DNA of 64,000 bases from Bacteroidota bacterium (GTDB lineage: Bacteria > Bacteroidota > Rhodothermia > Rhodothermales > Rubricoccaceae): positions 164-64,163 of the forward strand of contig DUBD01000191.1 of assembly GCA_012960515.1 (NCBI GenBank), written 5' to 3'. Below are positions 49,540 to 63,030 of this stretch, one piece after another. Within the stretch, counting starts at the first letter, position 1. Each line of letters begins with the position of its first letter. The notes below the pieces were generated by a model, which ran no database searches, was not told the origin of the DNA, and worked only from the letters and a program-made list of their open reading frames with translations. A program made the translations under genes and the position numbers.

Positions 49540-50511
49540 TCACGGAGCGCCGAGAGAATGACCGACATGCGTCCGGGCCCAGCGGATAGCTGTCTGGGCG
49601 AGGGTCTCACGCCGTTCCAGGACGGCGACCTCGACCGAGAACCCGGCGCGCAGTTCGATCGGTGTCTCGGCCTCCCCGACGATTACCGCGATCTCGTCGG
49701 GGTCGATGCTCAGCTCGACACGCCAACGTGCGGCGTGAGGCTCACCAGCGACTCCCTGTTGGCCGTCGACCTCTGGCGCCAGCGCCACCCGTCGGACGAC
49801 GCCAGAGGCCTGCCGGGGGCGCTCCTGGGGAATGGCCGGGAACGTGAGTCGGGCCGTCATCCCCGGACGAGCGCGCAGCGCCTCGCGCTCGGGAGCCCAG
49901 GCGCGGACGATGTGGGGGACTCGGCCGTCGGCATCCAGCGCCGCGAGATCAAGCACGGTGTCTCCCGCGTCGAGGCGGGCACCGCGACGCTGGGGGAGAT
50001 CCTCAGTAAGCACGACGCCGCCACGCCAGAAGGTCGCCGGGTCGGCGGCACCGTCAGACTGGCGCTCGGTCCACGGGGGCGCGACCACGTCGAGTCGAGC
50101 GCGCCGAGCGAGAAGGCCTGGGTCGTGGCCAATGGAGGTGCGAACTGCCTCGTCCAGGTCGGGCGAGCGGAGCCGAGCGACGAGTTGGCCGGGGCGTACG
50201 GTGTCGCCCGCGGCGACGAGGATGTCGGTGAGCAACCCCGGCTCGGCAGCACGAATCGGGAGTACGCGCTCGGGCACGAGACGACCGTCGAGGTCGACGG
50301 TGCGCGTGATCGGAACGGTGAGGGCGGCTACGCACGCGAGAACGCCCGCCAGCCCGACGGCGCGGAGGATGCGACGCCCGGCTCTCTCGGCTCCCTGAGA
50401 GGGCGGCGGTGGACCGTCGCTGGCAGGCGGGCCTCCGAGTGCCCGACGGGCGTCGGGGACCGTGAGCGTCCACCCTGGCGACTCTTCGGCTACGCTGCCA
50501 TCTCCGTGCAT
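49540..50511 (-). CDS. HlyD-like membrane fusion protein (short)
   Basis: TM anchor, LDGRLVP..., VAAGDTVRPGQLVARL lipoyl-like motif, LRAGFSVEVAV. Confidence 0.7.
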   Translation of the reverse strand: MHGDGSVAEESPGWTLTVPDARRALGGPPASDGPPPPSQGAERAGRRILRAVGLAGVLACVAALTVPITRTVDLDGRLVPERVLPIRAAEPGLLTDILVAAGDTVRPGQLVARLRSPDLDEAVRTSIGHDPGLLARRARLDVVAPPWTERQSDGAADPATFWRGGVVLTEDLPQRRGARLDAGDTVLDLAALDADGRVPHIVRAWAPEREALRARPGMTARLTFPAIPQERPRQASGVVRRVALAPEVDGQQGVAGEPHAARWRVELSIDPDEIAVIVGEAETPIELRAGFSVEVAVLERRETLAQTAIRWARTHVGHSLGAP

Positions 50512-52397
50512 GGCTGGGCGGTGATGGAGGGAACGGCCCCGGCCCGACCATCCCCGCTGACATCCCGCGCCGCCAGTCGGACGGTGCGGTCCGCGAGCGC
50601 GGCGTGTTCGGGCTGGTGGGAGACGAGAACGACGGCAGGCGGCTCGGGGCGGTCGCGGAGCTCGTCCAGCAGCCGTGACATGACGGTGTGAGCGGTCGCA
50701 TTGTCGAGGTTGGCGGTGGCCTCATCAAGGAGCACGAGCCGGATGGGCGTCGCGGCCACGCGGACACGGAGGAGCGTCCGCGCGAGGGCCAGCCTCTGGC
50801 GTTCGCCGGCCGAGAGCGACGCGGCGCCTTCGGCGAGGGCGACGTCGAGCGGGTTGTCCGTGGCCGACTGGCGGGCGAGCTCTCGAACGCGGTCGCCCAG
50901 CGCGCAGGCGTCGAGGACGGCGCGCAGCTCGTCGTCCTGAATCGCTCGACCCGCTACGTCCTCGGCGGCGACGACGAGGTTGTCGCGGACAGACGACGAG
51001 AGCAGGCCGGGCTCTTGCCAGCAGATGGCCACGCGGTCGCGCCACGCCGGGGCATTCTGGATGCGGACCCACGACGGGCCTCTGGGGCCGGAGGCCTCCG
51101 CCTCGATGGTGCCACTGTCGGGGCGTTCGACCTGGCCGAGCAGGCGGAGCGCGGTCGTCTTGCCGCATCCGGAGGGGCCGACGAGCGCGACGGCTTCGCC
51201 CGGCGCGAGGTCGAGGCGGGCCAGGTCGAGGCCAGGGGCGTCGGGCGCGTAGCGGAAGCGGACGTCGCGCACGCGAATCCGGCCGGTGTAGCGTAGGCTC
51301 GCTTCGCTCGCGAGGGATGGGGGATTCGCTCGCTTCCGCTCGCTGGGGATGGGGGATGGGGAAATGCCAGGAAGGCGTCGCTCAGCTCGGCGGATGGTGG
51401 CGCCTGGGTCCGCCTCGGGCGGCTCGTCGGCCAGGTCGAACACGCGGCCGAGGGAGACGGCGGCCTTCTGGAGCTTACCGCCGGCGTCGATGAGGGCTGC
51501 GAGAGGGGAGAGGAGGAGCGCGGCGTACGCCTGGAAGGCGACGTAGCCGCCGAGCGTGAGGTCGCCCGCGAGCACGAGCCACCAGCCGAGGTAGGTGAGC
51601 GCGGCGAGGTGGAGTGCTCGGACGACGGCGTTGGCGCCGTTGCACACGTACCAGAGCCCGGTCGCCTGGACGGTCCCGGCGTGCGCCTCCGCCACGTGCG
51701 TCTGGGCGCGGCGGTAGAGCGCGGCCTCGCAGCCCATGCTCTTGAAGGTGCGGGCCTCGCGGACGGCCTCGATGCGGAAGGCGGCCCACTGGTCGTAGGC
51801 GTCGTAAGTGGTCGCCCACCGACGGTTGGCGAGCGTGCCGAGCCCGGCCGTGAGGGCGGCGGTGATGGGCACAGCGACGAGGGCAACGAGCGCCAGACGC
51901 GGCTCGATGAGGAACAGGATCGGGGGGACGGCGAGGAGGTAGGCGCTCTGGCTCATGGCCGTGAGCGCGGCGTCGGCGCTAGTGTCGAGGACCTCCTGCA
52001 CGTCGCCGAAGCGGCCCGCGATCTCGCCGCTGCGCCTCGCCTCAAGCACGCGGGAGGGGAGGTGGAGCACGTGGTTGAAGAGCGCCAGCCGGGCCACGTC
52101 GCGCATCCGGGTCCGCGCGGCGAAGGCCGTGAAGCGGAACAGGTTGCGGATGATGCCCTCGCCTGCCTTCGCAGCCACGATGCCGAGGACGACCACGCCG
52201 AGCAGCGACACGTTGCCCGCCGGGTAGACGCGGTCGAAGAGGGCAGCCGTGAGGAGCGGCGCGATCAGGCCGAGTCCGCCGGAGACGATGGAGAGCGTTC
52301 CCGCACGTGTGATGGCGGGCCACTCCGACCGGAACAGCCGCGCGAGACGGCCGAGGTCGGTGAGCGACTGGCGAAGCCCTGGGGTCTCGGTCGCCAC
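50490..52397 (-). CDS. ABC exporter (TMD plus NBD, no C39 peptidase domain)
   Basis: LFDRVYP, RRSGEIAGRF, GPSGCGKTT, LSAGERQRL, LLDEATANLD. Confidence 0.9.
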   Translation of the reverse strand: MATETPGLRQSLTDLGRLARLFRSEWPAITRAGTLSIVSGGLGLIAPLLTAALFDRVYPAGNVSLLGVVVLGIVAAKAGEGIIRNLFRFTAFAARTRMRDVARLALFNHVLHLPSRVLEARRSGEIAGRFGDVQEVLDTSADAALTAMSQSAYLLAVPPILFLIEPRLALVALVAVPITAALTAGLGTLANRRWATTYDAYDQWAAFRIEAVREARTFKSMGCEAALYRRAQTHVAEAHAGTVQATGLWYVCNGANAVVRALHLAALTYLGWWLVLAGDLTLGGYVAFQAYAALLLSPLAALIDAGGKLQKAAVSLGRVFDLADEPPEADPGATIRRAERRLPGISPSPIPSERKRANPPSLASEASLRYTGRIRVRDVRFRYAPDAPGLDLARLDLAPGEAVALVGPSGCGKTTALRLLGQVERPDSGTIEAEASGPRGPSWVRIQNAPAWRDRVAICWQEPGLLSSSVRDNLVVAAEDVAGRAIQDDELRAVLDACALGDRVRELARQSATDNPLDVALAEGAASLSAGERQRLALARTLLRVRVAATPIRLVLLDEATANLDNATAHTVMSRLLDELRDRPEPPAVVLVSHQPEHAALADRTVRLAARDVSGDGRAGAVPSITAQPCTEMAA

Positions 52398-53804: not shown

Positions 53805-56348
53805 TCAGCGGACGATGGTGAGGCGATGCGTTACCGTCTGGGCGCCTGTGGCGACGCGGACGGCGTAGACGCCAGAGGCGAGAGCCGACACGTCGAGCCG
53901 CAGGTCTCGGGAGACGTCGTCGTGCCGGGCGACGACGCGACCGAGCGCATCGAAAACGGTGGCCTCGATCCGGGCGCCAGTGGGTGCGGCGATCCGGAGG
54001 CGCGTCGAGGTGTGCGCCGGGTTGGGGCGGGGTGCTGAGACGATCAGCGCGTCGACTGCGTCCGCCTCGGCCCCGAGGCGGGAGGGCTCGCCGTCGTCGC
54101 GGTCCTCGTCGTGGCCGGGGTCGACGGCCGGGGCGAGGAGCCCGAGCGGGACGGCGTCGCCAGAGGCCCATCCGCTGACGGCATTCGCGATCTGGGCCGA
54201 GGGGGCCTGGTAGTCGTTCAGACGCCCACGTGTCTCGGGGAGTGGCCCGGTCCAGGCGAAGTCGGCGTAGGCGTCGCCCGCGCCGGTGAGCTGGAGGGAG
54301 TGCCCGGCGGGGAGCGCGCTCCACTCCTGGACGCGGCGGTGCGTGCCGTCCGCCCCGCGCGGCCCTCGGATGACGGTGCTCCACGCGAGCGAGTCGGGGT
54401 GGGAGGGGGCACCTCCGCCAGAGGCCTCCGCCTCGGCGGCGTCGAAGACGGGCCCCTCGATGGCGTTGAACCGACAGCCGCCGGTGCTGAGGAACTGCAG
54501 GAGGACGCCGTCGGGGTCGGTGAGAGCGAGGCCCTGGCAACCACCGCGGAGGCGCTCGGCGCCCTGCCAGACGGCGCCGATGCCGCCGCCTTCGTCGTCG
54601 ATCGTGCCGCGGAAGGCGATGGCGGGAGAGCCGTCGGTGCCGTCGCCGTCGACCTGGTAGAGGAATCCGTAGCCCGAGTAGGTCCAGACGCGGTAGCCGT
54701 AGAGGTCCGTCCCGGCGCGTCCCGCGATCTCGACGCCTTCGCCCGTGTCGGGTCCGTCGTTCGAGTGGTGTATCTCGTTGATCCAGAGGTCGCGTGGGCG
54801 GGGCGCGTTGGGGCCCCGGTAGAACGTCCGTGCGAGGAGCGTCGGGTCGAGCACGAACGGGTTGCGGTTGCCCTGGGCGCGGTAGATGCGCTCGTTTCGC
54901 TGGACCTCGAAGGCGTCGACGGGGTCGGCCTCGTGCCAGTCACGGAGCACGTCGAGCGTGGCGTCGATAAAGGCGCGGCCCTCGTCGCCGTCCTCGGCCT
55001 CGATGCGATACGTGACGAGGAAGTAGGCGGCCATGCGCGCCACGTCGCCGCGGAGGGCGTGGCGCACGTCGAAGCGGCCGAGCTCGTCCAGGCTCTTGTA
55101 GCCGTCGCCGTTATCGGGCTGGCGGAGGAAGTCGAACTCGACGCGGCTCCAGGTCGCCGGGTCGGTCGGCGGCCCCGATGCGTGGTAGCGCGTCGTGCTG
55201 TTCCGGAGCCACTTCTGGGTGTCGTTCGGCCCGTCGAAGTCGTCTCCGAAGGCCCGGTTGGAGCGCGCGCTGTTGAAGGTGCCGAAGGCCGGGGCGAGGT
55301 GGTGGAGGTCGTTGTGCGAGGCGCCGTCGGTGGACGGACCGGTCTGCGCGCCCCGGCTCCGGGGCCACACGTGCTCCGTGTTGAAGTCCTGGTCCTGCAT
55401 CTGCGTCCGGGGCGTGAGCGGGCGCTCCCGCTCCCAAGACCGAACGAGCCCGCCGTAGAGTCCGCTCAGGTCGTGGAGCGTGCCGCTGCCGACCTGACGG
55501 ACGGCCTCGACCCAGACGGTCTCGAAGAGGTGGTCGCGGGCCTCGTCGTAGTGGAACGTCTGGGCCGGGGCGTACGCGGCGCGGATGCAGCTCTCGGCGT
55601 TCCAACCCCGGAGGCCTGGGCATATAGCGCCGACGGGCGTGTTCGGTACGAGGACGGCGAGGTCCTCGACGACGGCGTGGTAGCCGTCGGGGTTGGGGTG
55701 CATCGGGGCCTCGGCCGCGAGGGCAAGGGCGCCGACCCCGACGAAGCCGGGGACGGTCGTGGCGGGCAGGGCGACGTGGTCGACGTGGACCGTCCAAGCG
55801 TGGCCGCTGGCGGTCGGGACGCTCCGGATCTCGACCGGGACGTTCCGACTGTGACCGGCGGTTGGCAGCGAGGGGAGCGAGACCTGGGTGCTGATGGTGC
55901 CGTCGGTGACGGCGATCGCGTCGAGGTCGAGCGTCGTCCCTGCCGCGGGCCAGCGGAGCCGGAGCGCGGTGAAGGCCTGGGCGTCGGTGTAGCGGTCGAT
56001 GAGGTAGAGCGTGACGTCGGCCGCGTGGCTGTTGGGCTCCCGGACGACGGCCCGCAGGGTCCGCTCGCCGGTCGGCCCCTGGGCCACGGCGACGGCGTTC
56101 GAGCCCGGCTCGAAGTTGACGCGCGAGCTGGTGATCTTCGGCTTGAGCGCGTCGTCCGTCGTGCCCTCGACGGTCCAGCGGAGCCCGATCTCGGGCGTGT
56201 GCTGGTCGATGGGCGTGTCGCCCGCCTGGCAGCACATCGTGTCGAAGAACGCGAGCGCCTGGTCGCCGCTGCCGTAGGTCTGGGCGGCAGCGGGGACGGC
56301 GGCGAGCGCGACGAGCCCGGCGAGGAGTGAGCGGGGAAGAGGCAGCAT
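53805..56348 (-). CDS. Multidomain endonuclease I family protein with T9SS C-terminal domain
   Basis: Signal peptide; NTEHVWP, DLHHL, NSARSN, GDVAR, QGNRNPFV; WINEIHH (lamin-tail-like); C-terminal PNP...FDALGR...GVYAVR. Confidence 0.85.
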   Translation of the reverse strand: MLPLPRSLLAGLVALAAVPAAAQTYGSGDQALAFFDTMCCQAGDTPIDQHTPEIGLRWTVEGTTDDALKPKITSSRVNFEPGSNAVAVAQGPTGERTLRAVVREPNSHAADVTLYLIDRYTDAQAFTALRLRWPAAGTTLDLDAIAVTDGTISTQVSLPSLPTAGHSRNVPVEIRSVPTASGHAWTVHVDHVALPATTVPGFVGVGALALAAEAPMHPNPDGYHAVVEDLAVLVPNTPVGAICPGLRGWNAESCIRAAYAPAQTFHYDEARDHLFETVWVEAVRQVGSGTLHDLSGLYGGLVRSWERERPLTPRTQMQDQDFNTEHVWPRSRGAQTGPSTDGASHNDLHHLAPAFGTFNSARSNRAFGDDFDGPNDTQKWLRNSTTRYHASGPPTDPATWSRVEFDFLRQPDNGDGYKSLDELGRFDVRHALRGDVARMAAYFLVTYRIEAEDGDEGRAFIDATLDVLRDWHEADPVDAFEVQRNERIYRAQGNRNPFVLDPTLLARTFYRGPNAPRPRDLWINEIHHSNDGPDTGEGVEIAGRAGTDLYGYRVWTYSGYGFLYQVDGDGTDGSPAIAFRGTIDDEGGGIGAVWQGAERLRGGCQGLALTDPDGVLLQFLSTGGCRFNAIEGPVFDAAEAEASGGGAPSHPDSLAWSTVIRGPRGADGTHRRVQEWSALPAGHSLQLTGAGDAYADFAWTGPLPETRGRLNDYQAPSAQIANAVSGWASGDAVPLGLLAPAVDPGHDEDRDDGEPSRLGAEADAVDALIVSAPRPNPAHTSTRLRIAAPTGARIEATVFDALGRVVARHDDVSRDLRLDVSALASGVYAVRVATGAQTVTHRLTIVR

Positions 56349-56359
56349 CGGGGCGAGAA

Positions 56360-56387
56360 GCCTCTGGCGCACGGCGACGCCAGAGGC
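56360..56387. repeat. Inverted pair of the GCCTCTGGCG 10-mer forming a hairpin
   Basis: GCCTCTGGCG-CACGGCGA-CGCCAGAGGC between two co-oriented genes. Confidence 0.8.
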
Positions 56388-56399
56388 CTCGTCGGTGGG

Positions 56400-57230
56400 C
56401 TAGAACTGGCAGGCCGGGTCGTCCGGGTCGTAGCCGCCCGAGTAGCACACGCACTTGCAGCCGTCGTCGGCGGGCAGATTGCAGTCGCCGCAGATGTCGT
56501 CTCCGGCGAGGGCGTTCCAGCCGCTGACGGCCAGCGCCCAGAGCGAGAAGAGCCCGGTGGCGACGTTGGCCTCTTGGACGTCTAGGTGGGCGCTCGTCTC
56601 GGCCGACGCGTCGTGGCCGTCAGTATGGGTGGGTAGCGCGCCGCCGACGACCGAGCCGAGCATGGCGAGGAGCATCAGGGTGGCGGCCATGCGATGCGCC
56701 GTCTCGACCAGGCGCGTCCCGACGCCGCGTCCTCCGCTCCCGCCCGTGTCGCCAGGGTCGTCGGCCATCTCGGCCGCGACCCGGTCCTCGTGGGCGCTCG
56801 CGCGGATGCCGCCGAGGGACGCCGCCAGCGTGGCGCGTAGGGTCGGCTCGGTACCCACGGGCCGGTTGTCGCCGCCTGCCGGGTCGCTCGAAGCGGATGG
56901 CGAGCGGTGGACGACCTTGCGCCGGTCGGGCGGTGCGGCGGCGTGGTCGGGCGCCGGGCCGTCCTCGCTGCCGCCCGTGCCGCCGGCCTGGCTGGACACC
57001 GAGCCGTGGCTCTCGTCCTGGTCGCGGCGACGGCTCGGAGGATCGTGGGGGTTCGGCGGATCGCCTCCGGCGGTGGGCTGGCGGTGGATGATCTTGCGCC
57101 GGTCCCCCGTCTGCGGGTCGGGCGCCGGGGCGCCCTCGTTGTTGATGACGCGCCGCCGGTCGGAGGCGGGGTCGTGCGAGGGGTCGAGGGTGCCGTCGGC
57201 AACGGGGAGAGTGGGAGCGAGAGCGCTCAT
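56400..57230 (-). CDS. Hypothetical protein: repeat-rich N-terminus, two hydrophobic helices, six-Cys C-terminus
   Basis: DRR(K/R)(V/I)(I/V) x3; ends CGDC...CKCVC...CQF. Alternative GTG start at 57452. Confidence 0.7.
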   Translation of the reverse strand: MSALAPTLPVADGTLDPSHDPASDRRRVINNEGAPAPDPQTGDRRKIIHRQPTAGGDPPNPHDPPSRRRDQDESHGSVSSQAGGTGGSEDGPAPDHAAAPPDRRKVVHRSPSASSDPAGGDNRPVGTEPTLRATLAASLGGIRASAHEDRVAAEMADDPGDTGGSGGRGVGTRLVETAHRMAATLMLLAMLGSVVGGALPTHTDGHDASAETSAHLDVQEANVATGLFSLWALAVSGWNALAGDDICGDCNLPADDGCKCVCYSGGYDPDDPACQF

Positions 57231-57448
57231 GGCAGGCGGGCTCGAACGGCCCGTGGCTGGGGCCTTCGTCCTGACGCGGTCTCGGCCGCGCCAGATGTCT
57301 GGCGGTGGTTGAGGGTGTCGGCCTCGCGGCCCGGGTGGGCGACGAGGCTGTTCGGCCGCAGGCGCGGCCAGGGCCCTGCCGCACAGATGCGCGGCGGGAC
57401 CCTCCGGCGGGCAGGCGTGAGGGCACACGCGGCCCGCCGGTGTCGGGC

Positions 57449-57880
57449 TCACCCGGTGACGGTGAGGTCGTGGAGGGTGCGTGGGTCGTCGGGCGTGGGG
57501 CCCTGCTCGTGGCCGCCGTCGCCGCCGGGGTCCTGGTCGGTCCCGACGCCCTGGCTGCCGCCGTCCCCGCTGGCGGTCGCTAGGTCGTGCAGGTCTGGGC
57601 CGATGCTGAGAGCGGCGTGCGTGCCGCCGCCCTGGTTTCCACCGTCGCCCTCGGGATCGTCGTCGGTGCCGACGCCGCTCGTGCCTCCGTCGCCACCGGG
57701 ATCGGCGCCAGAGGCGTCGAACGCGAACGCACGGGGAGCGGGTGGAGGGTCGCCTGGTTCGTGGCCGCCGTCGCCGCCGGGGTGCGTGTCGACGGTGAGG
57801 GAGAGCGCGTTGTCGGGCGCCGGTCCGTCTTCGGAGCCGGTGTCGGGGTCGGTGGCTCGAGAGGCAGGGAGGTCGGGCAT
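57449..57880 (-). CDS. Gly/Asp-rich repeat peptide ((P/S)xGDGG x5)
   Basis: 143 aa with PGGDGGHE, PGGDGGTSGVGT, PEGDGGNQG, SGDGGSQGVGT, PGGDGGHEQ. Confidence 0.65.
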   Translation of the reverse strand: MPDLPASRATDPDTGSEDGPAPDNALSLTVDTHPGGDGGHEPGDPPPAPRAFAFDASGADPGGDGGTSGVGTDDDPEGDGGNQGGGTHAALSIGPDLHDLATASGDGGSQGVGTDQDPGGDGGHEQGPTPDDPRTLHDLTVTG

Positions 57881-57953
57881 GGCCGTGGGGGTGTGGGACG
57901 CGCTGGCGGATGGGACCGGACGGCGCGGCCAGCGCGCACCGTCCCGGGTCGGG

Positions 57954-59102
57954 TCACTTCGACTCCGGCCTCGGGGTGAACATGAAGAGCACCCGGAAGA
58001 CGCGGAAGACGAGGTAGCCGAGGACGGTGACGAGCGTGAGGACGATGTAGAGGTCGGTGTTGCGGACGCCGATCATGAGCACCCGGAGCGCCCCCAGCCC
58101 GATGAGGAAGAAGACGTAGACCAGCCCGAGGTTGAAGAAGGGCGCGTCGTCGCGCGACTGGAGATCGCGGACGTCCTGCTCGGTGACGAGCTTGGACTGC
58201 GCGCCGTCGTGCATCATGGCGCGGAGGATGGCCGGGTTGCCCTCGGCGCGGCGGAGGACTTCGCGGCGGTAGTGGCGGCGGTCGGCGCAGGCGACGGCGT
58301 AGCGCGAGACGAAGTACTCGAAGAGGGCCGCCGTGTGGGCGTCGCCGAGCGGCTCGACGTGGATCTGGCCGAACGTGGCGATAAACGTGCGGAGCGAACG
58401 GCTCTGGGGCAGCGACCGGATGGCGCCGATGACGGTGGCGCGCTGCTGGATCTCGCGGAGGAAGAGGCCCTGAGACGGCGACGCTCGGTCGAGCGCGTCG
58501 AGCACGACGAGCAGGCGCGGGGCACGGCCCCCGCCGGCGAGGTCGTGGAGCGACTCGACGACGGCGGTCTGGCGCTCGTCGACGGTGCGGAGCAGCTTTT
58601 TGACCTCGGCCCAGTCGTACTCGTCGCAGGCGCCCGCGCGCATCTGCGGCGGGATGCCAGGAAGGGCGAGGATGCCGAGCCCGTGGAACGCCTTCGCGAG
58701 CGCGTCCACGAGGCGACCGTTGGGCCCGGCCTCGGCGACGTAGACGAGGGTGTAGGCCTCGCCGGGCGTCTGCGGCATCTGGACGTACTTCCGCCGGGCG
58801 CGCGTCTGGGCGGCGCCGTCGAGAAGCACGCGTCGGCCCGCAACGACGGCGGCGAGGTCTTCCAGGAGGCGCGTCTTGCCGACGCCCTCGTCGCCCAGGA
58901 GGAGCGTGTGGCGACCGAGGACGGCGCGGTCGACGAGTTCGGCCAGGACGTGGCCGTTGCCGAGGCGGATGGGGTCCGTGAGGACGGTGCAGTCGGGCGC
59001 TCCGGGAACGCCGACTGGACGGAGCGCCCCGACCGACTGGCCGGGCGCCGCGAGGGCGTCGGGCCGGGAGATCGCCGAGAGCCGGGGAGCGGTCGAGAGC
59101 AT
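57954..59102 (-). CDS. P-loop (AAA-like) ATPase with two C-terminal TM helices
   Basis: LLGDEGVGKT, VVLDALD, GNP; C-terminal hydrophobic hairpin. Confidence 0.8.
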   Translation of the reverse strand: MLSTAPRLSAISRPDALAAPGQSVGALRPVGVPGAPDCTVLTDPIRLGNGHVLAELVDRAVLGRHTLLLGDEGVGKTRLLEDLAAVVAGRRVLLDGAAQTRARRKYVQMPQTPGEAYTLVYVAEAGPNGRLVDALAKAFHGLGILALPGIPPQMRAGACDEYDWAEVKKLLRTVDERQTAVVESLHDLAGGGRAPRLLVVLDALDRASPSQGLFLREIQQRATVIGAIRSLPQSRSLRTFIATFGQIHVEPLGDAHTAALFEYFVSRYAVACADRRHYRREVLRRAEGNPAILRAMMHDGAQSKLVTEQDVRDLQSRDDAPFFNLGLVYVFFLIGLGALRVLMIGVRNTDLYIVLTLVTVLGYLVFRVFRVLFMFTPRPESK

Positions 59103-60578
59103 CTATCGGTGGAGCCTCGTCCAGAGCCGGGTGACGTCGTGCACGACGGGGTCGTCGAGGTGTCCGTTGGCCGCGTGGAAGGCGAGGAGCTTGCCCGCGA
59201 CCTCCTCGTAGGTCTTGGCGCGACCGCGCTTGAAGAAGTGCCAGCGCTTGGGCGGCTCATCACACAGGAGCGCGCGGAGGTAGCGGACGGCGTCGACTGC
59301 GGCGACCGGGCTGGCGATGCCGGTCTCTTCGAGAACGTGGGCCTCGTGGGCGACGGCGCGGTCTCGTCCCACGGCGTCCTCGAAGAGGGCGAAGACCTCG
59401 GTGCGGAGCCGGTCGAGCTCCGTCGCGAGGGGGTGGCGCGTGGCCGCCTGCGGCGCCGGGGGTGGGGAGGACGGGAGCGCGGCCATCGTGGGGGCGCTCG
59501 GGGCCTCTGGCGGGGCAGGCGGCTCGGCGTGAGCGGAGCCGTCGCCAGAGGTCATCGTGATCGTTTCGGCTGGCTCGCTGGCGCCAGGCTCCGGTGCGGG
59601 GGGAGGACCCATCGCGTTCAGGACTAGACCGCTCTGGGAGAGGGGGCCAGCGGGAGAGAGGGAGGTGCCTGGAGATCCGCCCTGCAATTCCGCGACGAGG
59701 GCGCCGAGGCCCGTCGCGTGAGGGTGGCTGGGCTCGACGAGGCGAGGGCGCTCGGCGCGTTCGCGGAGGTAGCTCTCGACGGCCTCAGCCTGATCGTCGG
59801 CTAGCGTCGCGCCCGGATCGGCGACGGGTGGAAGAGCGAGGGGCGCCGTCTCGCCAGAGGCCCCTCGGCGGGCGAGCGCGAGGCGGTTGGCCTGCTCGAT
59901 GACGCCGTCGAGGTCGAAGGCGCGGTCGCTCCGGTCGGGGAGCGTCGCGCGGTTTTTCGCCCGGTCGTAGAGCAGGACGCGCCCGGTGACGCCGTCGAGG
60001 TGATGGGCGAGCGTGGTCGCGAGCTCGTCGTTGGGCGCGCCGTCTTCGGCCGAGCCGGTGAGGTCAGCGAGGTCGAGGAGAAGAACGCGAGGGCGGTCGG
60101 GGTCGGAGAAGTCGTTGACTTCGAGGACGCCGCCTCCGCAGCCGGAGCGCGCGATCTGGCGCGCGACGAGCTCGGCGGACTCGCGGCCGTCGACGTGGAG
60201 CTTGAGGCACTCCGCGTAGAAGACGGTCTCGAGGAAGCGGGCGCACTCCGGCTCCGCCAGCTCGAAGAGGCTGAGGAAGGCGTCATGGCCCGCGTCGCGG
60301 TGCTCGATGAAGCGCGCGAGCGCCGAGGCGGGCGTGACCGGGAAGCGGTAGTCCGGCGTGGTGCGGGCGACGGTGAGGAGCTGCCCCGACGAGGCCACGA
60401 AGGTGTCGTAGGTCGGTCCGAGGGTCCCGTGTCCGTCGCCAGAGGCGGTCTCACCGTGGGCTCCGTACCGGACGACGATGAGCGACACGACCCCCTGGGC
60501 CTGCTGGTCGGCGAGGCCTACCGGGTCCGCGAAGGACGCCGGGACGTGCTCGAAGATGGGGTGTGCCGTCGTGAGCAT
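59103..60578 (-). CDS. Hypothetical protein (globular N-terminal domains, Pro/Ala linker, helical C-terminal domain)
   Basis: 491 aa; TGATG-coupled to the upstream gene; abuts the AAA gene. Confidence 0.7.
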   Translation of the reverse strand: MLTTAHPIFEHVPASFADPVGLADQQAQGVVSLIVVRYGAHGETASGDGHGTLGPTYDTFVASSGQLLTVARTTPDYRFPVTPASALARFIEHRDAGHDAFLSLFELAEPECARFLETVFYAECLKLHVDGRESAELVARQIARSGCGGGVLEVNDFSDPDRPRVLLLDLADLTGSAEDGAPNDELATTLAHHLDGVTGRVLLYDRAKNRATLPDRSDRAFDLDGVIEQANRLALARRGASGETAPLALPPVADPGATLADDQAEAVESYLRERAERPRLVEPSHPHATGLGALVAELQGGSPGTSLSPAGPLSQSGLVLNAMGPPPAPEPGASEPAETITMTSGDGSAHAEPPAPPEAPSAPTMAALPSSPPPAPQAATRHPLATELDRLRTEVFALFEDAVGRDRAVAHEAHVLEETGIASPVAAVDAVRYLRALLCDEPPKRWHFFKRGRAKTYEEVAGKLLAFHAANGHLDDPVVHDVTRLWTRLHR

Positions 60579-61378
60579 CAGGGTGCGGGGGCGCGGTCGC
60601 CAGGAGCCTCTGGCGAGGCGAGCGCGAGGTCGGGGTCGCCACCGGCGTCGAGCGTGGCGAGACGGGCGGCGTTCGTGGCCAGTGCGTGCTCGGCCGAGAG
60701 GAGCGCCAGGCGTTGGCGCGCGAGCCCCTCGTAGTCGAGGTCGCCCTGTTCGTACTTCATCTCGGCGAGGCGTGTCAGCTCCCGCTGGGCCTCGACGCGG
60801 CGGGCGAGGTAGTCGGCCTCGATGCGGAGCTGGACCGCGGCGAGGTCGGCGCGTCGCTGCTGCTCGGCCTCTCGCTCCCGTTCGTCCGCCTCGCGCTCGG
60901 CACGAGCGATGATGCGCTCTCGGGCCTGGGCCTCCTGGCGCTCGCGTCGGGCGTGGTGGAGGTCGATTCGGGCCTCGGCGAGCGTGACGGCGGCGCGGGC
61001 GCGGTGGAGGGGGCGGCGGTCGAGGAGCTGTTCGAGCGACCACGAGGCCGTGACGCCCCACGTGTCGCCGGGCCAGCGCGCGATGGCGGCGTAGGCGGGG
61101 TCGTAGCCCTGGGACGAGATGGAGGGGAAGGCGAGGCCGCGCGTGGAGACGCTGAGGAAGAAGTCGAGCTGGGGCCGGAGGCGCGCAAGGCCGGAGGTCG
61201 CACGCAGCTCCAGCCGGGCGAGGTCGAGACGGGCCTCCTCAATGCGGAGCGCGGCCGTCGACGTGTCGGCGGCGAGGAAGAGATCCGCGAGGGGATCGCC
61301 GCTGCCGAGCGGAGCGGGCTCCTGACCGTGGCAGACGGCCGAGCCGAAGAGGGCGAAGACGAGGAGGACGAGGCGCAT
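60578..61378 (-). CDS. Short TolC/OEP-like secreted protein
   Basis: Signal peptide; coiled-coil helices, WGVTASWSLEQL strand, KYEQGDL motif. About half the length of TolC. Confidence 0.6.
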   Translation of the reverse strand: MRLVLLVFALFGSAVCHGQEPAPLGSGDPLADLFLAADTSTAALRIEEARLDLARLELRATSGLARLRPQLDFFLSVSTRGLAFPSISSQGYDPAYAAIARWPGDTWGVTASWSLEQLLDRRPLHRARAAVTLAEARIDLHHARRERQEAQARERIIARAEREADEREREAEQQRRADLAAVQLRIEADYLARRVEAQRELTRLAEMKYEQGDLDYEGLARQRLALLSAEHALATNAARLATLDAGGDPDLALASPEAPGDRAPAP

Positions 61379-61383
61379 CGGTC

Positions 61384-61731
61384 TCAGGCGTGGGCGGGCT
61401 CGGGCGCGAGCGCCTGGAGGGACGGCGCGTCGGCCGGGTCGAGGCCGGCGGCTCCGGCCAGCGCCTTGAGAAAGCCGTCCCCAAGGACGGGGCGACGCTC
61501 GAAAAGGGCCAGCGTCTGGCTGGCCAGTTCGGCGTGGAAGCCGGGCGGCATCGCGTGGTAGTGCTCGCAGTGGTGGAGCCGGAGCGCGGCGTAGGCCTGC
61601 CGGTCGTGGTCGCGGCCGGTGGCCTCGAGCGCGTTGCGGACGACGCAGATGTCGAAGCGGTGCGAGGTCAGCATCCGGTAGAGCGCGAGGGCGACGGACC
61701 GGCGGCGGAAGGGGTCGATGGTGTCGAGCAT
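61384..61731 (-). CDS. Hypothetical protein with FDIC...LHHC motif
   Basis: 115 aa; HRFDICVV...YAALRLHHCEHYHAM. Confidence 0.6.
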   Translation of the reverse strand: MLDTIDPFRRRSVALALYRMLTSHRFDICVVRNALEATGRDHDRQAYAALRLHHCEHYHAMPPGFHAELASQTLALFERRPVLGDGFLKALAGAAGLDPADAPSLQALAPEPAHA

Positions 61732-61848
61732 GGTGGCACCTGCGGTGCGGGACTGGGGACTATGCGCTGTCGCGCCGGGACTGGGGACTGGCAAGGGGCG
61801 CGTACTCCCTGTTCCCGAGTCCCTAGTCCCGCGCGAGCGAAGCGAGCG

Positions 61849-62733
61849 CTACCCCTCCGTGTTCTCGCGGATCACGACGCCGTCACCGCCCCGCTGCTTG
61901 GTCTGGCGGAAGGTGCCGTTCACGTAGTCGTTGCGCGAGACGACCGAGCCGTCGGCGGTGTCGCCGGAGGAGAGGAGCGTCCGGAGCAGCGTGCCGGTCA
62001 CGTTGCCCTCGGCGTCGATGGCGAAGTCGGCGCCGTAGTAGCGCGTGCGGACCGAGCCGTCGGGGCCGCCGTCGCGGAGCGTACCCGTCCCGTTGGTATT
62101 GAGCGTGGCGACGGGCTCGCGGACGGTGACCGACTCGCGCAGCTCCTGGTTGGCGTAGCTCACGACGGCCTCGCCCTCGGCGGGCGAGTAGACCTGGGCG
62201 ACGCGCCACGTGTCGTAGGTCGAGAAGCTGGCCTCGGCGTCGTTGGAGGCGCCGGTGAGGTAGGGGATGGAGCCCGCCTGGAGCGCGGAGACGAAGCCCA
62301 CGAGGTCGGCGTAGGTGAGGAACGAGAGCGTGACCGACTCGACGGCGTCCAGGCCGCCCACGTCGCGGGCGTGCTGGACGCGGGCCTGCCAGACGCCGAC
62401 GCCCTGGGGCTCGCGGTACTGGAGCTGGACCAGGAAGCCCTTGGCGTTGACGGCGTCGTAGACGCCGGTGTAGGTCGTCGTGTCGACGCGGGCGCTCATC
62501 GAGGCGAGCGCAGTGGCGCCCGTCGCGGAGGCCGCGCGAGCGGCGGAGCCCGAGTCGCCGAAGCCGAGGGAGAAGAGCTCCTCCACTTCCTCAAAGGCTG
62601 CGGTGACGAGCGCCGATTCGTTCGCGGAGATGGGCTCGATGGGATCGGGGCCCGTGGGGCCGTCCGTCGGGATGGTGGCGTCGCAGGCGGCGAGGAGCAG
62701 CGCCAGAGGCGCGAGAAGGAGAACGCGGAGCAT
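61849..62733 (-). CDS. Hypothetical lipoprotein
   Basis: LLAAC lipobox; beta-rich body. Confidence 0.8.
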   Translation of the reverse strand: MLRVLLLAPLALLLAACDATIPTDGPTGPDPIEPISANESALVTAAFEEVEELFSLGFGDSGSAARAASATGATALASMSARVDTTTYTGVYDAVNAKGFLVQLQYREPQGVGVWQARVQHARDVGGLDAVESVTLSFLTYADLVGFVSALQAGSIPYLTGASNDAEASFSTYDTWRVAQVYSPAEGEAVVSYANQELRESVTVREPVATLNTNGTGTLRDGGPDGSVRTRYYGADFAIDAEGNVTGTLLRTLLSSGDTADGSVVSRNDYVNGTFRQTKQRGGDGVVIRENTEG

Positions 62734-63030
62734 GGTGTGGTTGAGGGTGCGCCCGTCGAGGGCTGGGGAGGCCGAGAGCGGCCGGGGAGAGGCGAGGGCA
62801 CGCCTCTGGCGGAGTGCCAGCTTGGCTGGCATGGGGGGCCGCTGAGCGGCCCAGGGGAGCCTCCTCCTCCACGCCGCGTAGACGGGTGCAGGATCGAAGC
62901 TCTCCGGTCGCGCAATGCGCGGCCATGGTTGACTTGCGTCGACCTATCGGTTGAGGGTGTCGGTTCGGGTCTTCGGACCGGGCGGCCACCGGGGCAGGGC
63001 TAACAGTCCCCGGTGGCCGTCTCTGTGTGG

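Follow-up and report, generated by a model that had tools for sequence, protein, structure and literature searches.

The C-terminal 33 residues of the protein encoded by P0001, a gene on the minus strand of the 64,000-nucleotide stretch of contig DUBD01000191.1 analysed here (hereafter the window; assembly GCA_012960515.1, Rubricoccaceae), are a conserved six-cysteine, aspartate-rich mini-domain, referred to below as the tip. The tip family is new, unnamed and confined to plasmid-like replicons of one order, in the Rubricoccaceae and other Rhodothermales. The reading favoured here, at somewhat less than even confidence, is that P0001, as a long-form member of this lineage-restricted family, would be a single-pass inner-membrane protein with its N-terminus inside the cytoplasm and its C-terminus outside. 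A first transmembrane segment (TM1, residues 181-199) would act as a signal-anchor, with the histidine- and acid-rich linker, a Trp-rich amphipathic helix (helix 2) and the six-Cys tip all outside the cytoplasm. Up to three disulfides could form in the exported tip, whose Asp, Asn and Gly positions may also serve to bind divalent cations. The 176-residue tail would remain disordered in the cytoplasm, its PDRRK(V/I)(V/I)H(R/Q)xP repeats serving as short docking motifs. The gene and the parts of its product are as follows.

56400..57230, minus strand: tip gene P0001, a coding sequence of 276 amino acids plus stop codon and a long-form family member, from GC content at third codon positions (GC3), homologues and the ratio of non-synonymous to synonymous substitution rates (dN/dS)
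56403..56501, minus strand: six-Cys acidic tip, residues 244-276, its six Cys invariant in an alignment of 14 tips
56502..56564, minus strand: helix 2, residues 223-243, VATGLFSLWALAVSGWNALAG, marginally hydrophobic and homologous to the sole N-terminal helix of the 51-57 amino acid (aa) forms
56565..56633, minus strand: His- and acid-rich linker, residues 200-222, from alignment and charge
56634..56690, minus strand: TM1, signal-anchor, residues 181-199, MAATLMLLAMLGSVVGGAL, from the Hessa scale; homologous to the signal-peptide-like segment of the 84-133 aa forms
56703..57230, minus strand: N-terminal disordered region, residues 1-176, net charge -6, no Cys, from the alignment and an AlphaFold2 (AF2) confidence score (pLDDT) below 50 over most of it

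P0001 is coding and under purifying selection. The open reading frame (ORF) runs from an ATG at 57230 to a stop codon at 56400-56402, and its GC content at the first, second and third codon positions is 0.74, 0.59 and 0.91 (GC3 0.906) in a surrounding sequence of 73% GC, a pattern shared by neighbouring genes with clear family matches. Because an in-frame extension up to a GTG at 57452 has a GC3 of only 0.74, and all homologues begin with MSALAP or MSTPA, the ATG at 57230 is considered to be the true start. Pairwise dN/dS values against four relatives range from 0.30 to 0.52, with the minimum in the membrane and tip part and the maximum in the disordered part. The low dS of the tip (~0.1-0.14) was considered as a sign of constraint at the nucleotide level, an idea that was rejected on finding that the DNA alignment consists of ordinary third-position changes under strong GC3 bias; recombination at the 3' end perhaps also contributes.

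The original prediction for this gene had pointed to a six-cysteine C-terminal tip, which is borne out as a conserved, self-contained module. The cysteines of P0001 are residues 247, 250, 258, 260, 262 and 274, giving the spacing CxxC-x7-CxCxC-x11-C within the family consensus C-x-D-C-N-x3-D-x-G-C-x-C-x-C-[YW]-S-G-G-[YF]-D-P-x-D-P-x-C. A word-indexed search of 5.8 billion proteins returned 16 relatives of P0001, at 35-91% identity and without a Pfam domain or name, while a full hidden Markov model search of 1.84 billion representatives matched only 18. Profiles made from the C-terminal half or from the short forms added 36 matches, mostly to short proteins, and the searches combined gave 48 tip-bearing cluster representatives, 45 with six cysteines and three with a seventh acquired through an insertion. 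P0001 has no match in Pfam, NCBIfam, PHROG, PADLOC or the PDB sequence profiles, and the tip alone gave no family match even at E = 10, the best being DUF4215 (E = 0.086). No relative was found in the plasmid collection PLSDB or in IMG/VR; a viral origin is not supported, given the absence from the latter. A literature search on the finding returned nothing relevant.

The family exists in three builds. The short build, of 51-57 aa, is a single hydrophobic helix followed by the tip (for example MLPSLFYALALAAAQLLAGPTEYCQDCNLPVDDGCKCVCYSGGYDPDDPACQF), the hydrophobic leader ending in small residues (LTGG, LLAG, LVG) with the tip next; some short forms of 70-79 aa carry a non-hydrophobic upstream extension that is possibly untranslated. 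The medium build, of 84-133 aa, opens with a Sec-like signal and has a His-rich linker and a second helix ahead of the tip. One such protein (P0115, at locus L036), from a genome belonging to another family of the order, opens with a textbook Sec signal, MRRSLTTLQSLALSLMLFGLAVQISAGA; the N-termini of P0019, P0021, P0116 and P0120 are similar to it, and TM1 of P0001 is homologous. The long build, of 205-358 aa, which includes P0001, adds 110-250 disordered residues ahead of these parts, with two to five DRRK repeats. There is also a lineage having the tail only (P0016, P0017 and P0026), in which the gene ends 86 nt ahead of a nuclease gene and no tip is present within 20 kb.

Two in-frame insertions were observed in tips. 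One, GACPGLRS or EACPGPRP, follows the YSGG motif and in L015 (3764-3880) corresponds to a 24-nt GC-rich palindrome, CCCCGGA...TCCGGGG; the other, SRQAG(A/E)A, follows the CxDC motif. Both recur (P0003, P0015, P0137, P0125) in separate sublineages whose closest relatives are without them. This would fit either recombination between tip alleles or insertion of a small palindromic element into loops that tolerate it.

The placement of the tip relative to the membrane depends on the two helices. Both had been described in the original prediction as hydrophobic and as forming a hairpin. That at 181-199 is indeed a strong membrane helix, with a Hessa-scale sum of approximately 0.3 (family range 0-3.5, 19-residue window), but that at 223-243 is only marginal (3.4-3.6) and is not hydrophobic in some homologues, making a true hairpin doubtful. 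In the P0027/P0115/L036 type helix 2 carries D, D, E and R, in the P0019 and P0021 types it is likewise not hydrophobic, and in P0011, P0012 and P0014 it is interrupted by an ARIH/ARVR insertion. The median value for helix 2 across the family is 4.1 where TM1 is present, against 1.5 in proteins with no other hydrophobic segment (Mann-Whitney p = 1.7e-4, a value that is indicative only, as the sequences are related). Strong hydrophobicity of helix 2 is confined to proteins with no other anchor, and some relatives have charged residues in it; the tip is accordingly most likely to be extracytoplasmic and disulfide-bonded. The distribution of charge is basic ahead of TM1 (R, R, H, R) and acidic after it, with a net charge of -12 over the following 78 aa.

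The simplest consistent reading for all builds would be that the tip always lies outside the cytoplasm. In the short forms helix 2 itself would be the signal or anchor; in the medium and long forms TM1 would take this role, leaving helix 2 as a periplasmic amphipathic helix that is probably associated with the membrane. Since the tips of the short relatives directly follow a signal-peptide-like segment, an exported, disulfide-stabilised small domain is the best reading. To this extent the earlier proposal, of a precursor of a disulfide- or metal-stabilised membrane-active peptide, is partly supported; the tip alone matched no metal-binding family. The same genome contains a 501-aa open frame joining VKOR and thioredoxin-like domains (contig C282:884-2041, minus strand), which is likely to be the periplasmic disulfide-forming enzyme of the organism; oxidative folding outside the cytoplasm would thus be available. 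The AF2 model of P0001 has a pLDDT of 48, its only elements being two short helices (128-138, 146-156) and two long ones (172-197, 212-249).

The tail contains all three of the repeats previously described for a disordered N-terminus, in a region that AF2 places below a pLDDT of 50 for most of its length, and the GGSGGRGVGT segment is likewise present. Its elements in P0001 are these.

57138..57161, minus strand: repeat 1, DRRRVINN, residues 24-31
57081..57104, minus strand: repeat 2, DRRKIIHR, residues 43-50
57012..57035, minus strand: degenerate repeat, SRRRDQDE, residues 66-73, aligned with DRRKIIHR of homologues
56904..56927, minus strand: repeat 3, DRRKVVHR, residues 102-109
56715..56744, minus strand: GGSGGRGVGT, residues 163-172, its GVGT near-invariant in long forms and also found in a 143-aa protein encoded upstream

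The pattern D-R-R-[RK]-[VI]-[VI] occurs three times in P0001, whereas only eight of 200,000 composition-preserving shuffles contained one copy and none contained two. Across 43 distinct copies, at two to five per long-form protein, the repeat consensus is (P/S)-D-R-R-K-(V/I)-(I/V)-H-(R/Q)-x-P. The sole other match of the DRRK(V/I)(V/I)H type in the genome, in a protein starting ...MAISPEDRRKIIHHH (contig C84:1207-2020, minus strand), is within chance expectation. The suggestion that the repeats are export motifs is not supported, as they would lie cytoplasmic to the anchor and most family members lack them. Their resemblance to signals for twin-arginine translocation (Tat) was considered and rejected: DRRKVVH, DRRKIIH and DRRRVIN match the core Z-R-R-x-hydrophobic-hydrophobic, but the copies are internal and repeated, and all three are followed by polar, Pro- or Gly-rich sequence (RQPTAGGDP, RSPSASSDP) in place of an h-region.

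Besides the DRRK repeats, the tail is made up of an MSALAP start and the modules PNPHDPP, SHGSVSS, GSEDGPAPD, LGGIRAS and GSGGRGVGT. Of these, GSEDGPAPD and G-x-GVGT are common to P0001 and the upstream 143-aa acidic protein. SHGSVSS, at residues 74-80 of P0001, was also observed immediately before the stop codon of a small ORF just upstream of the main gene at three loci (L007:9650-9790, L008:4350-4450, L004:9620-9720); that of L007 reads ...SHGSVSSAGTHGSVSSATSHGSVSS-stop and contains three HGSVSS units. In L010 (100-800), the place of the 143-aa gene is taken by three tandem small ORFs of 36-47 aa with the form M-x-(V/F)-L-(P/S) at the start and ...[DE]ERRLRxRVETE further on, two of which stop right after ETE; they contain a 59-nt direct repeat with spacings of 201 and 236 nt. 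Judging by these sequences, the tail resembles a patchwork, with short modules that are also encoded by small genes of their own.

P0001 lies in a variable slot of a conserved gene cluster. One genome of the same genus contains the contig from which Rubricoccus marinus encodes the 495-aa protein of this cluster, which makes the host a Rubricoccus-like bacterium within the Rhodothermales. The window belongs to an 85.4-kb contig that is a tetranucleotide outlier within its own genome and carries an RPA/Rep3-type initiator, a ParA and a ribbon-helix-helix protein at 46-49 kb. The co-oriented cluster begins with an integrase, small proteins, a 570-aa YdjM-type hydrolase, a lipoprotein (327 aa) and a 136-aa Cys/His protein, continues with a signal-peptide coiled-coil protein (266 aa), a 495-aa protein, an AAA_16 ATPase (382 aa) and the slot, and ends with an Endonuclease I that has a type IX secretion system (T9SS) domain, a second Endonuclease I, in some plasmids an ATP-binding cassette (ABC) exporter with an HlyD-like adaptor, and the replication initiator. 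The members closest to the slot, with the exporter, are the following.

59103-60590, minus strand: conserved 495-aa backbone protein with at least 86 relatives, among them those of Rubricoccus marinus and Rubrivirga sp. S365
57954..59102, minus strand: AAA_16 P-loop ATPase ending in two membrane helices, constant neighbour of the slot on the upstream side
57449..57880, minus strand: 143-aa acidic, Gly/Asp-rich disordered protein, net charge -25, sharing GSEDGPAPD and GVGT with P0001
53805..56348, minus strand: Endonuclease I bearing a C-terminal sorting domain of the T9SS, constant neighbour of the slot on the downstream side
49540-52397, minus strand: HlyB/PrtD-like ABC exporter (635 aa, no C39 domain) and short HlyD-like adaptor (323 aa)

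The 143-, 327-, 136-, 266- and 495-aa proteins have no family match in Pfam, NCBIfam, PHROGs, PADLOC or the PDB sequence profiles. AF2 models the 495-aa protein at a pLDDT of 75 as an N-terminal alpha/beta domain, a Pro-rich linker and a C-terminal helical domain, for which Foldseek found no match in the PDB (best E 0.37). Relatives of the AAA_16 ATPase at 23% identity adjoin a metal-dependent hydrolase on plasmids pNHAL01 of Nitrosococcus halophilus and pALVIN01 of Allochromatium vinosum (L011 and L012), a pairing that echoes the ATPase and YdjM of the tip cluster and is uninformative for P0001.

A tip gene is found between the ATPase and nuclease genes in every context read, among them the window and L002, L004, L005, L008, L010, L013-L015, L020, L021, L036, L039 and L041. 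The gene following it is a nuclease (Endonuclease I or SNase) in most contexts, with another gene in between in L004 and L041, and one short-form tip gene starts 75 nt past the stop codon of the ATPase gene. At several loci a lipoprotein-type SNase occupies the slot, in L036 alongside a tip gene. Backbone proteins are 68-99% identical between loci whose P0001 relatives are 35-91% identical, which implies that the slot evolves much faster than its surroundings. Among 283 genomes of the order, the ATPase is present in nine and the tip in five, all of them among those nine. Ten of the 15 backbone loci with sufficient flanking sequence have a tip gene and five have none; the ABC exporter is present at six of the tip-positive loci and absent from four, and present at three of the tip-negative loci and absent from two. 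The ABC/HlyD pair is restricted to a plasmid subgroup whose tip genes, where present, are of the long or medium build, and the short-form subgroup lacks it, so that any link with the tip extends only to the long and medium builds and may be caused by plasmid clades.

It is a possibility, though a guess and one to which well under even weight is given, that P0001 is an optional, membrane-tethered accessory subunit of an envelope module formed by the ATPase and the nucleases. Such a role is favoured by the position between ATPase and nuclease genes, which is fixed in all three builds, and by the short form lying tight behind the ATPase gene. The exported knob would contact a periplasmic partner, for example the nucleases in transit or a cation, and the repeats would tie P0001 multivalently to the cytoplasmic face of the ATPase or to the 495-aa protein. 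A bolder version of this idea, which seems unlikely, makes the tip a new fold class: a plasmid-encoded, exported, disulfide-knotted acidic mini-domain forming the periplasmic working end of an uncharacterised envelope machine for extracellular DNA, with the repeats as a new linear motif coupling it to the ATPase. The parts of such a machine would be the lipoprotein, the coiled-coil periplasmic protein, the 495-aa protein, the membrane AAA ATPase, the tip protein and the T9SS nucleases.

Several observations weigh against this account of the protein and its role. Docking of the repeats to the ATPase or to the 495-aa protein is suggested by gene neighbourhood only. The tip gene is missing from both Rubricoccus marinus copies of the cluster, from Rubrivirga sp. 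S365 and from L035 and L040, so the backbone works without it, and one lineage (L007) retains the tail alone. The tip is near-invariant while the nucleases diverge to 57% identity, unlike a co-evolving pair of inhibitor and target. The poor AF2 model gives no structural confirmation of either tip fold or topology, and if helix 2 crossed the membrane in long-form proteins, a cytoplasmic, metal-bound tip would result.

Other explanations of the family were compared with this one. Some weight, albeit small, is given to P0001 being the precursor of a released, disulfide-knotted bioactive peptide, bacteriocin-like or signalling, from which signal peptidase or some other protease would free the ~33-aa tip or the ~78-aa ecto-part to act on other cells. 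The 51-57 aa forms have hardly anything beyond a hydrophobic leader and a tip, small-x-small sites follow TM1 (GGA-LP, SAAA-HH, SAGA-LI), the gene is plasmid-borne and in some plasmids only, and the long and medium forms are found alongside the ABC exporter and HlyD-like adaptor at six of six loci. However, the short forms are without any ABC or HlyD gene at four of four loci (L020, L021, L039, L041), and the 635-aa ABC protein has no C39 peptidase domain, its matches beginning at positions 152-164 of the HlyB and NHLM models. Neither a modifying enzyme nor an immunity-like gene is present. The tip is also highly acidic and near-invariant, while competition peptides usually diversify, and the fusion of 176 residues ahead of the signal points to anchoring.

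It is likewise improbable that P0001 is a dedicated partner of the adjacent secreted nucleases, its ecto-part mimicking DNA or ligating the catalytic metal so as to inhibit Endonuclease I or SNase or escort it to the T9SS. Known protein inhibitors of beta-beta-alpha-Me nucleases, such as the colicin immunity proteins and NuiA, are small, acidic and encoded beside their nuclease; the gene downstream of the tip gene is usually a nuclease, and the ecto-part combines its net charge of -12 over 78 aa with a His-rich linker. This adjacency is partly forced by the slot, as ATPase and nuclease genes also adjoin in the absence of a tip gene. The tip gene is mostly directly upstream of a nuclease gene, but five of the 15 backbone loci have the nucleases alone, and similar nucleases (70-73% identical) occur without a tip gene in L016, L019 and L035. 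Co-variation between tip and nuclease is not seen, and the periplasmic Endonuclease I of Escherichia coli is not known to require an inhibitor.

A true two-helix hairpin with a cytoplasmic, metal-binding Cys tail, metallothionein-like or holding zinc, copper or iron-sulphur, is more doubtful still. The CxxC and CxCxC spacing would suit it, as would the moderate hydrophobicity of helix 2 in P0001 and the single long helix that AF2 draws across residues 212-249, and the 51-57 aa forms could equally insert with the N-terminus out and the C-terminus in. Against this, the same six cysteines are kept in the P0019, P0021, P0027 and P0115 types, where helix 2 is non-hydrophobic and carries D, E or R; the hydrophobicity of helix 2 follows the absence of TM1; a strongly acidic tail is contrary to the positive-inside rule; and no metal-binding family was matched.

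A precursor of a ribosomally synthesised and post-translationally modified peptide (RiPP), or a type I secretion substrate, with the repeats and GRGVGT as recognition or cleavage sites, would draw on the repeated motifs, the Gly/Asp-rich 143-aa neighbour and the ABC and HlyD-like genes 4-7 kb downstream. It is very improbable, the RiPP reading being largely refuted by missing enzymes: no radical-SAM, ATP-grasp, cyclase or C39 peptidase genes were found in the cluster. No NCBIfam precursor family, including the six-Cys SCIFF, was matched at E up to 0.05, RTX nonapeptides are absent, and a protein with an internal membrane helix could not be secreted whole by a type I system. Two specific candidates were rejected. 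A double-glycine bacteriocin or NHLP-type precursor is countered by the ABC protein without C39, by a leader-like segment that resembles a membrane helix instead of being amphipathic, and by the short forms having no ABC exporter; an RTX substrate is countered by the lack of GGxGxDxUx nonapeptides and of a Pfam HemolysinCabind match, and by the strong membrane helix at 181-199. Finally, the alternative of a pilin-like subunit, for which GVG-TRLVE places a Gly at -1 and a Glu at +5 just ahead of TM1, is already refuted by the alignment. This segment lies 170 residues from the N-terminus in a protein with no N-terminal class III signal, is followed by H and R after the Glu, and is replaced by long insertions in P0011-P0015, while Pfam scans of the cluster genes found no prepilin peptidase or pilus assembly genes.

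The tip gene is flanked by conserved non-coding sequence.

57248..57428, minus strand: conserved non-coding stretch upstream of the P0001 start, with three motifs
57417-57428, minus strand: motif GTGTGCCCTCAC
57305-57319, minus strand: motif GACACCCTCAACCAC
57248-57261, minus strand: motif CCCAGCCACGGGCC
56360..56387, minus strand: terminator-like perfect 10-nt inverted repeat with an 8-nt loop, between the P0001 stop and the nuclease start

The 219 nt between the 143-aa gene and the start of P0001 are non-coding by codon statistics. The three blocks within them are conserved even where coding sequences have diverged strongly; they precede the long-form genes and the medium form of L010 and are absent from loci without a tip. 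The 15-mer GACACCCTCAACCAC also occurs at ~62947-62961 on the minus strand, as GACACCCTCAACCGA, upstream of the lipoprotein gene that opens the backbone operon, and the window, L007 and L013 all have this middle block ahead of the lipoprotein gene. Tip gene and backbone operon may thus have a regulatory site in common, and the stretch as a whole may act as a promoter, operator or leader. A search of 55500-62000 against Rfam and a scan for sigma-70 promoters found nothing. The terminator-like stem is conserved in the window, L009, L013, L014 and L015.

If the favoured reading of P0001 as a membrane-anchored protein with an exported tip is true, it would define a new small disulfide-rich domain and give a first handle on a conserved, unannotated gene cluster that a family of marine bacteria, Rubricoccus, Rubrivirga and their relatives, carries on plasmid-like replicons. 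The three builds range from a mini-protein of 51 residues to a fusion of 350 and make up a natural series, in which the conversion of a signal peptide into a membrane anchor and the piecing together of disordered tails out of short modules could be studied. In practice the finding is of modest value, unless bioactivity of the tip or its control over the nucleases can be shown.

A membrane-tethered, exported, disulfide-rich mini-domain is a familiar kind of protein, with a signal peptide or signal-anchor ahead of the Cys-rich part, as seen in P0115/L036 and in TM1 of P0001; the family itself is new and has an unusual modular history, and it is not a new kind of system. Among disulfide-knotted peptides, the short forms, with a hydrophobic leader and ~33 residues containing six invariant cysteines that are probably extracytoplasmic, are similar to knottin-like peptides and Sec-dependent bacteriocins, but the Cys spacing matches no Pfam, NCBIfam or PDB sequence, and the tip is very acidic. 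The precursors of SCIFF peptides, or ranthipeptides, with six cysteines in forty-five residues, share with P0001 a short C-terminal stretch containing six cysteines; P0001, however, matches no NCBIfam model, has no radical-SAM maturase nearby and comes from a different phylum and context. Like the immunity proteins of colicin DNases and NuiA of Anabaena, the members of the family are small, acidic and mostly encoded directly upstream of nucleases, including the beta-beta-alpha-Me Endonuclease I, but those inhibitors are cytoplasmic, folded and without cysteine knots, and the tip gene is absent from many plasmids with the same nucleases. In layout only, P0001 resembles bitopic inner-membrane proteins such as FtsN of E. 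coli, in which an N-terminal tail inside the cytoplasm with basic short motifs is followed by one membrane helix and a small exported C-terminal domain. There is no sequence relationship: P0001 would export a 33-residue six-Cys knob instead of a SPOR domain, its motif is repeated, with two to five copies per long-form protein, and most members of the family do without the tail.

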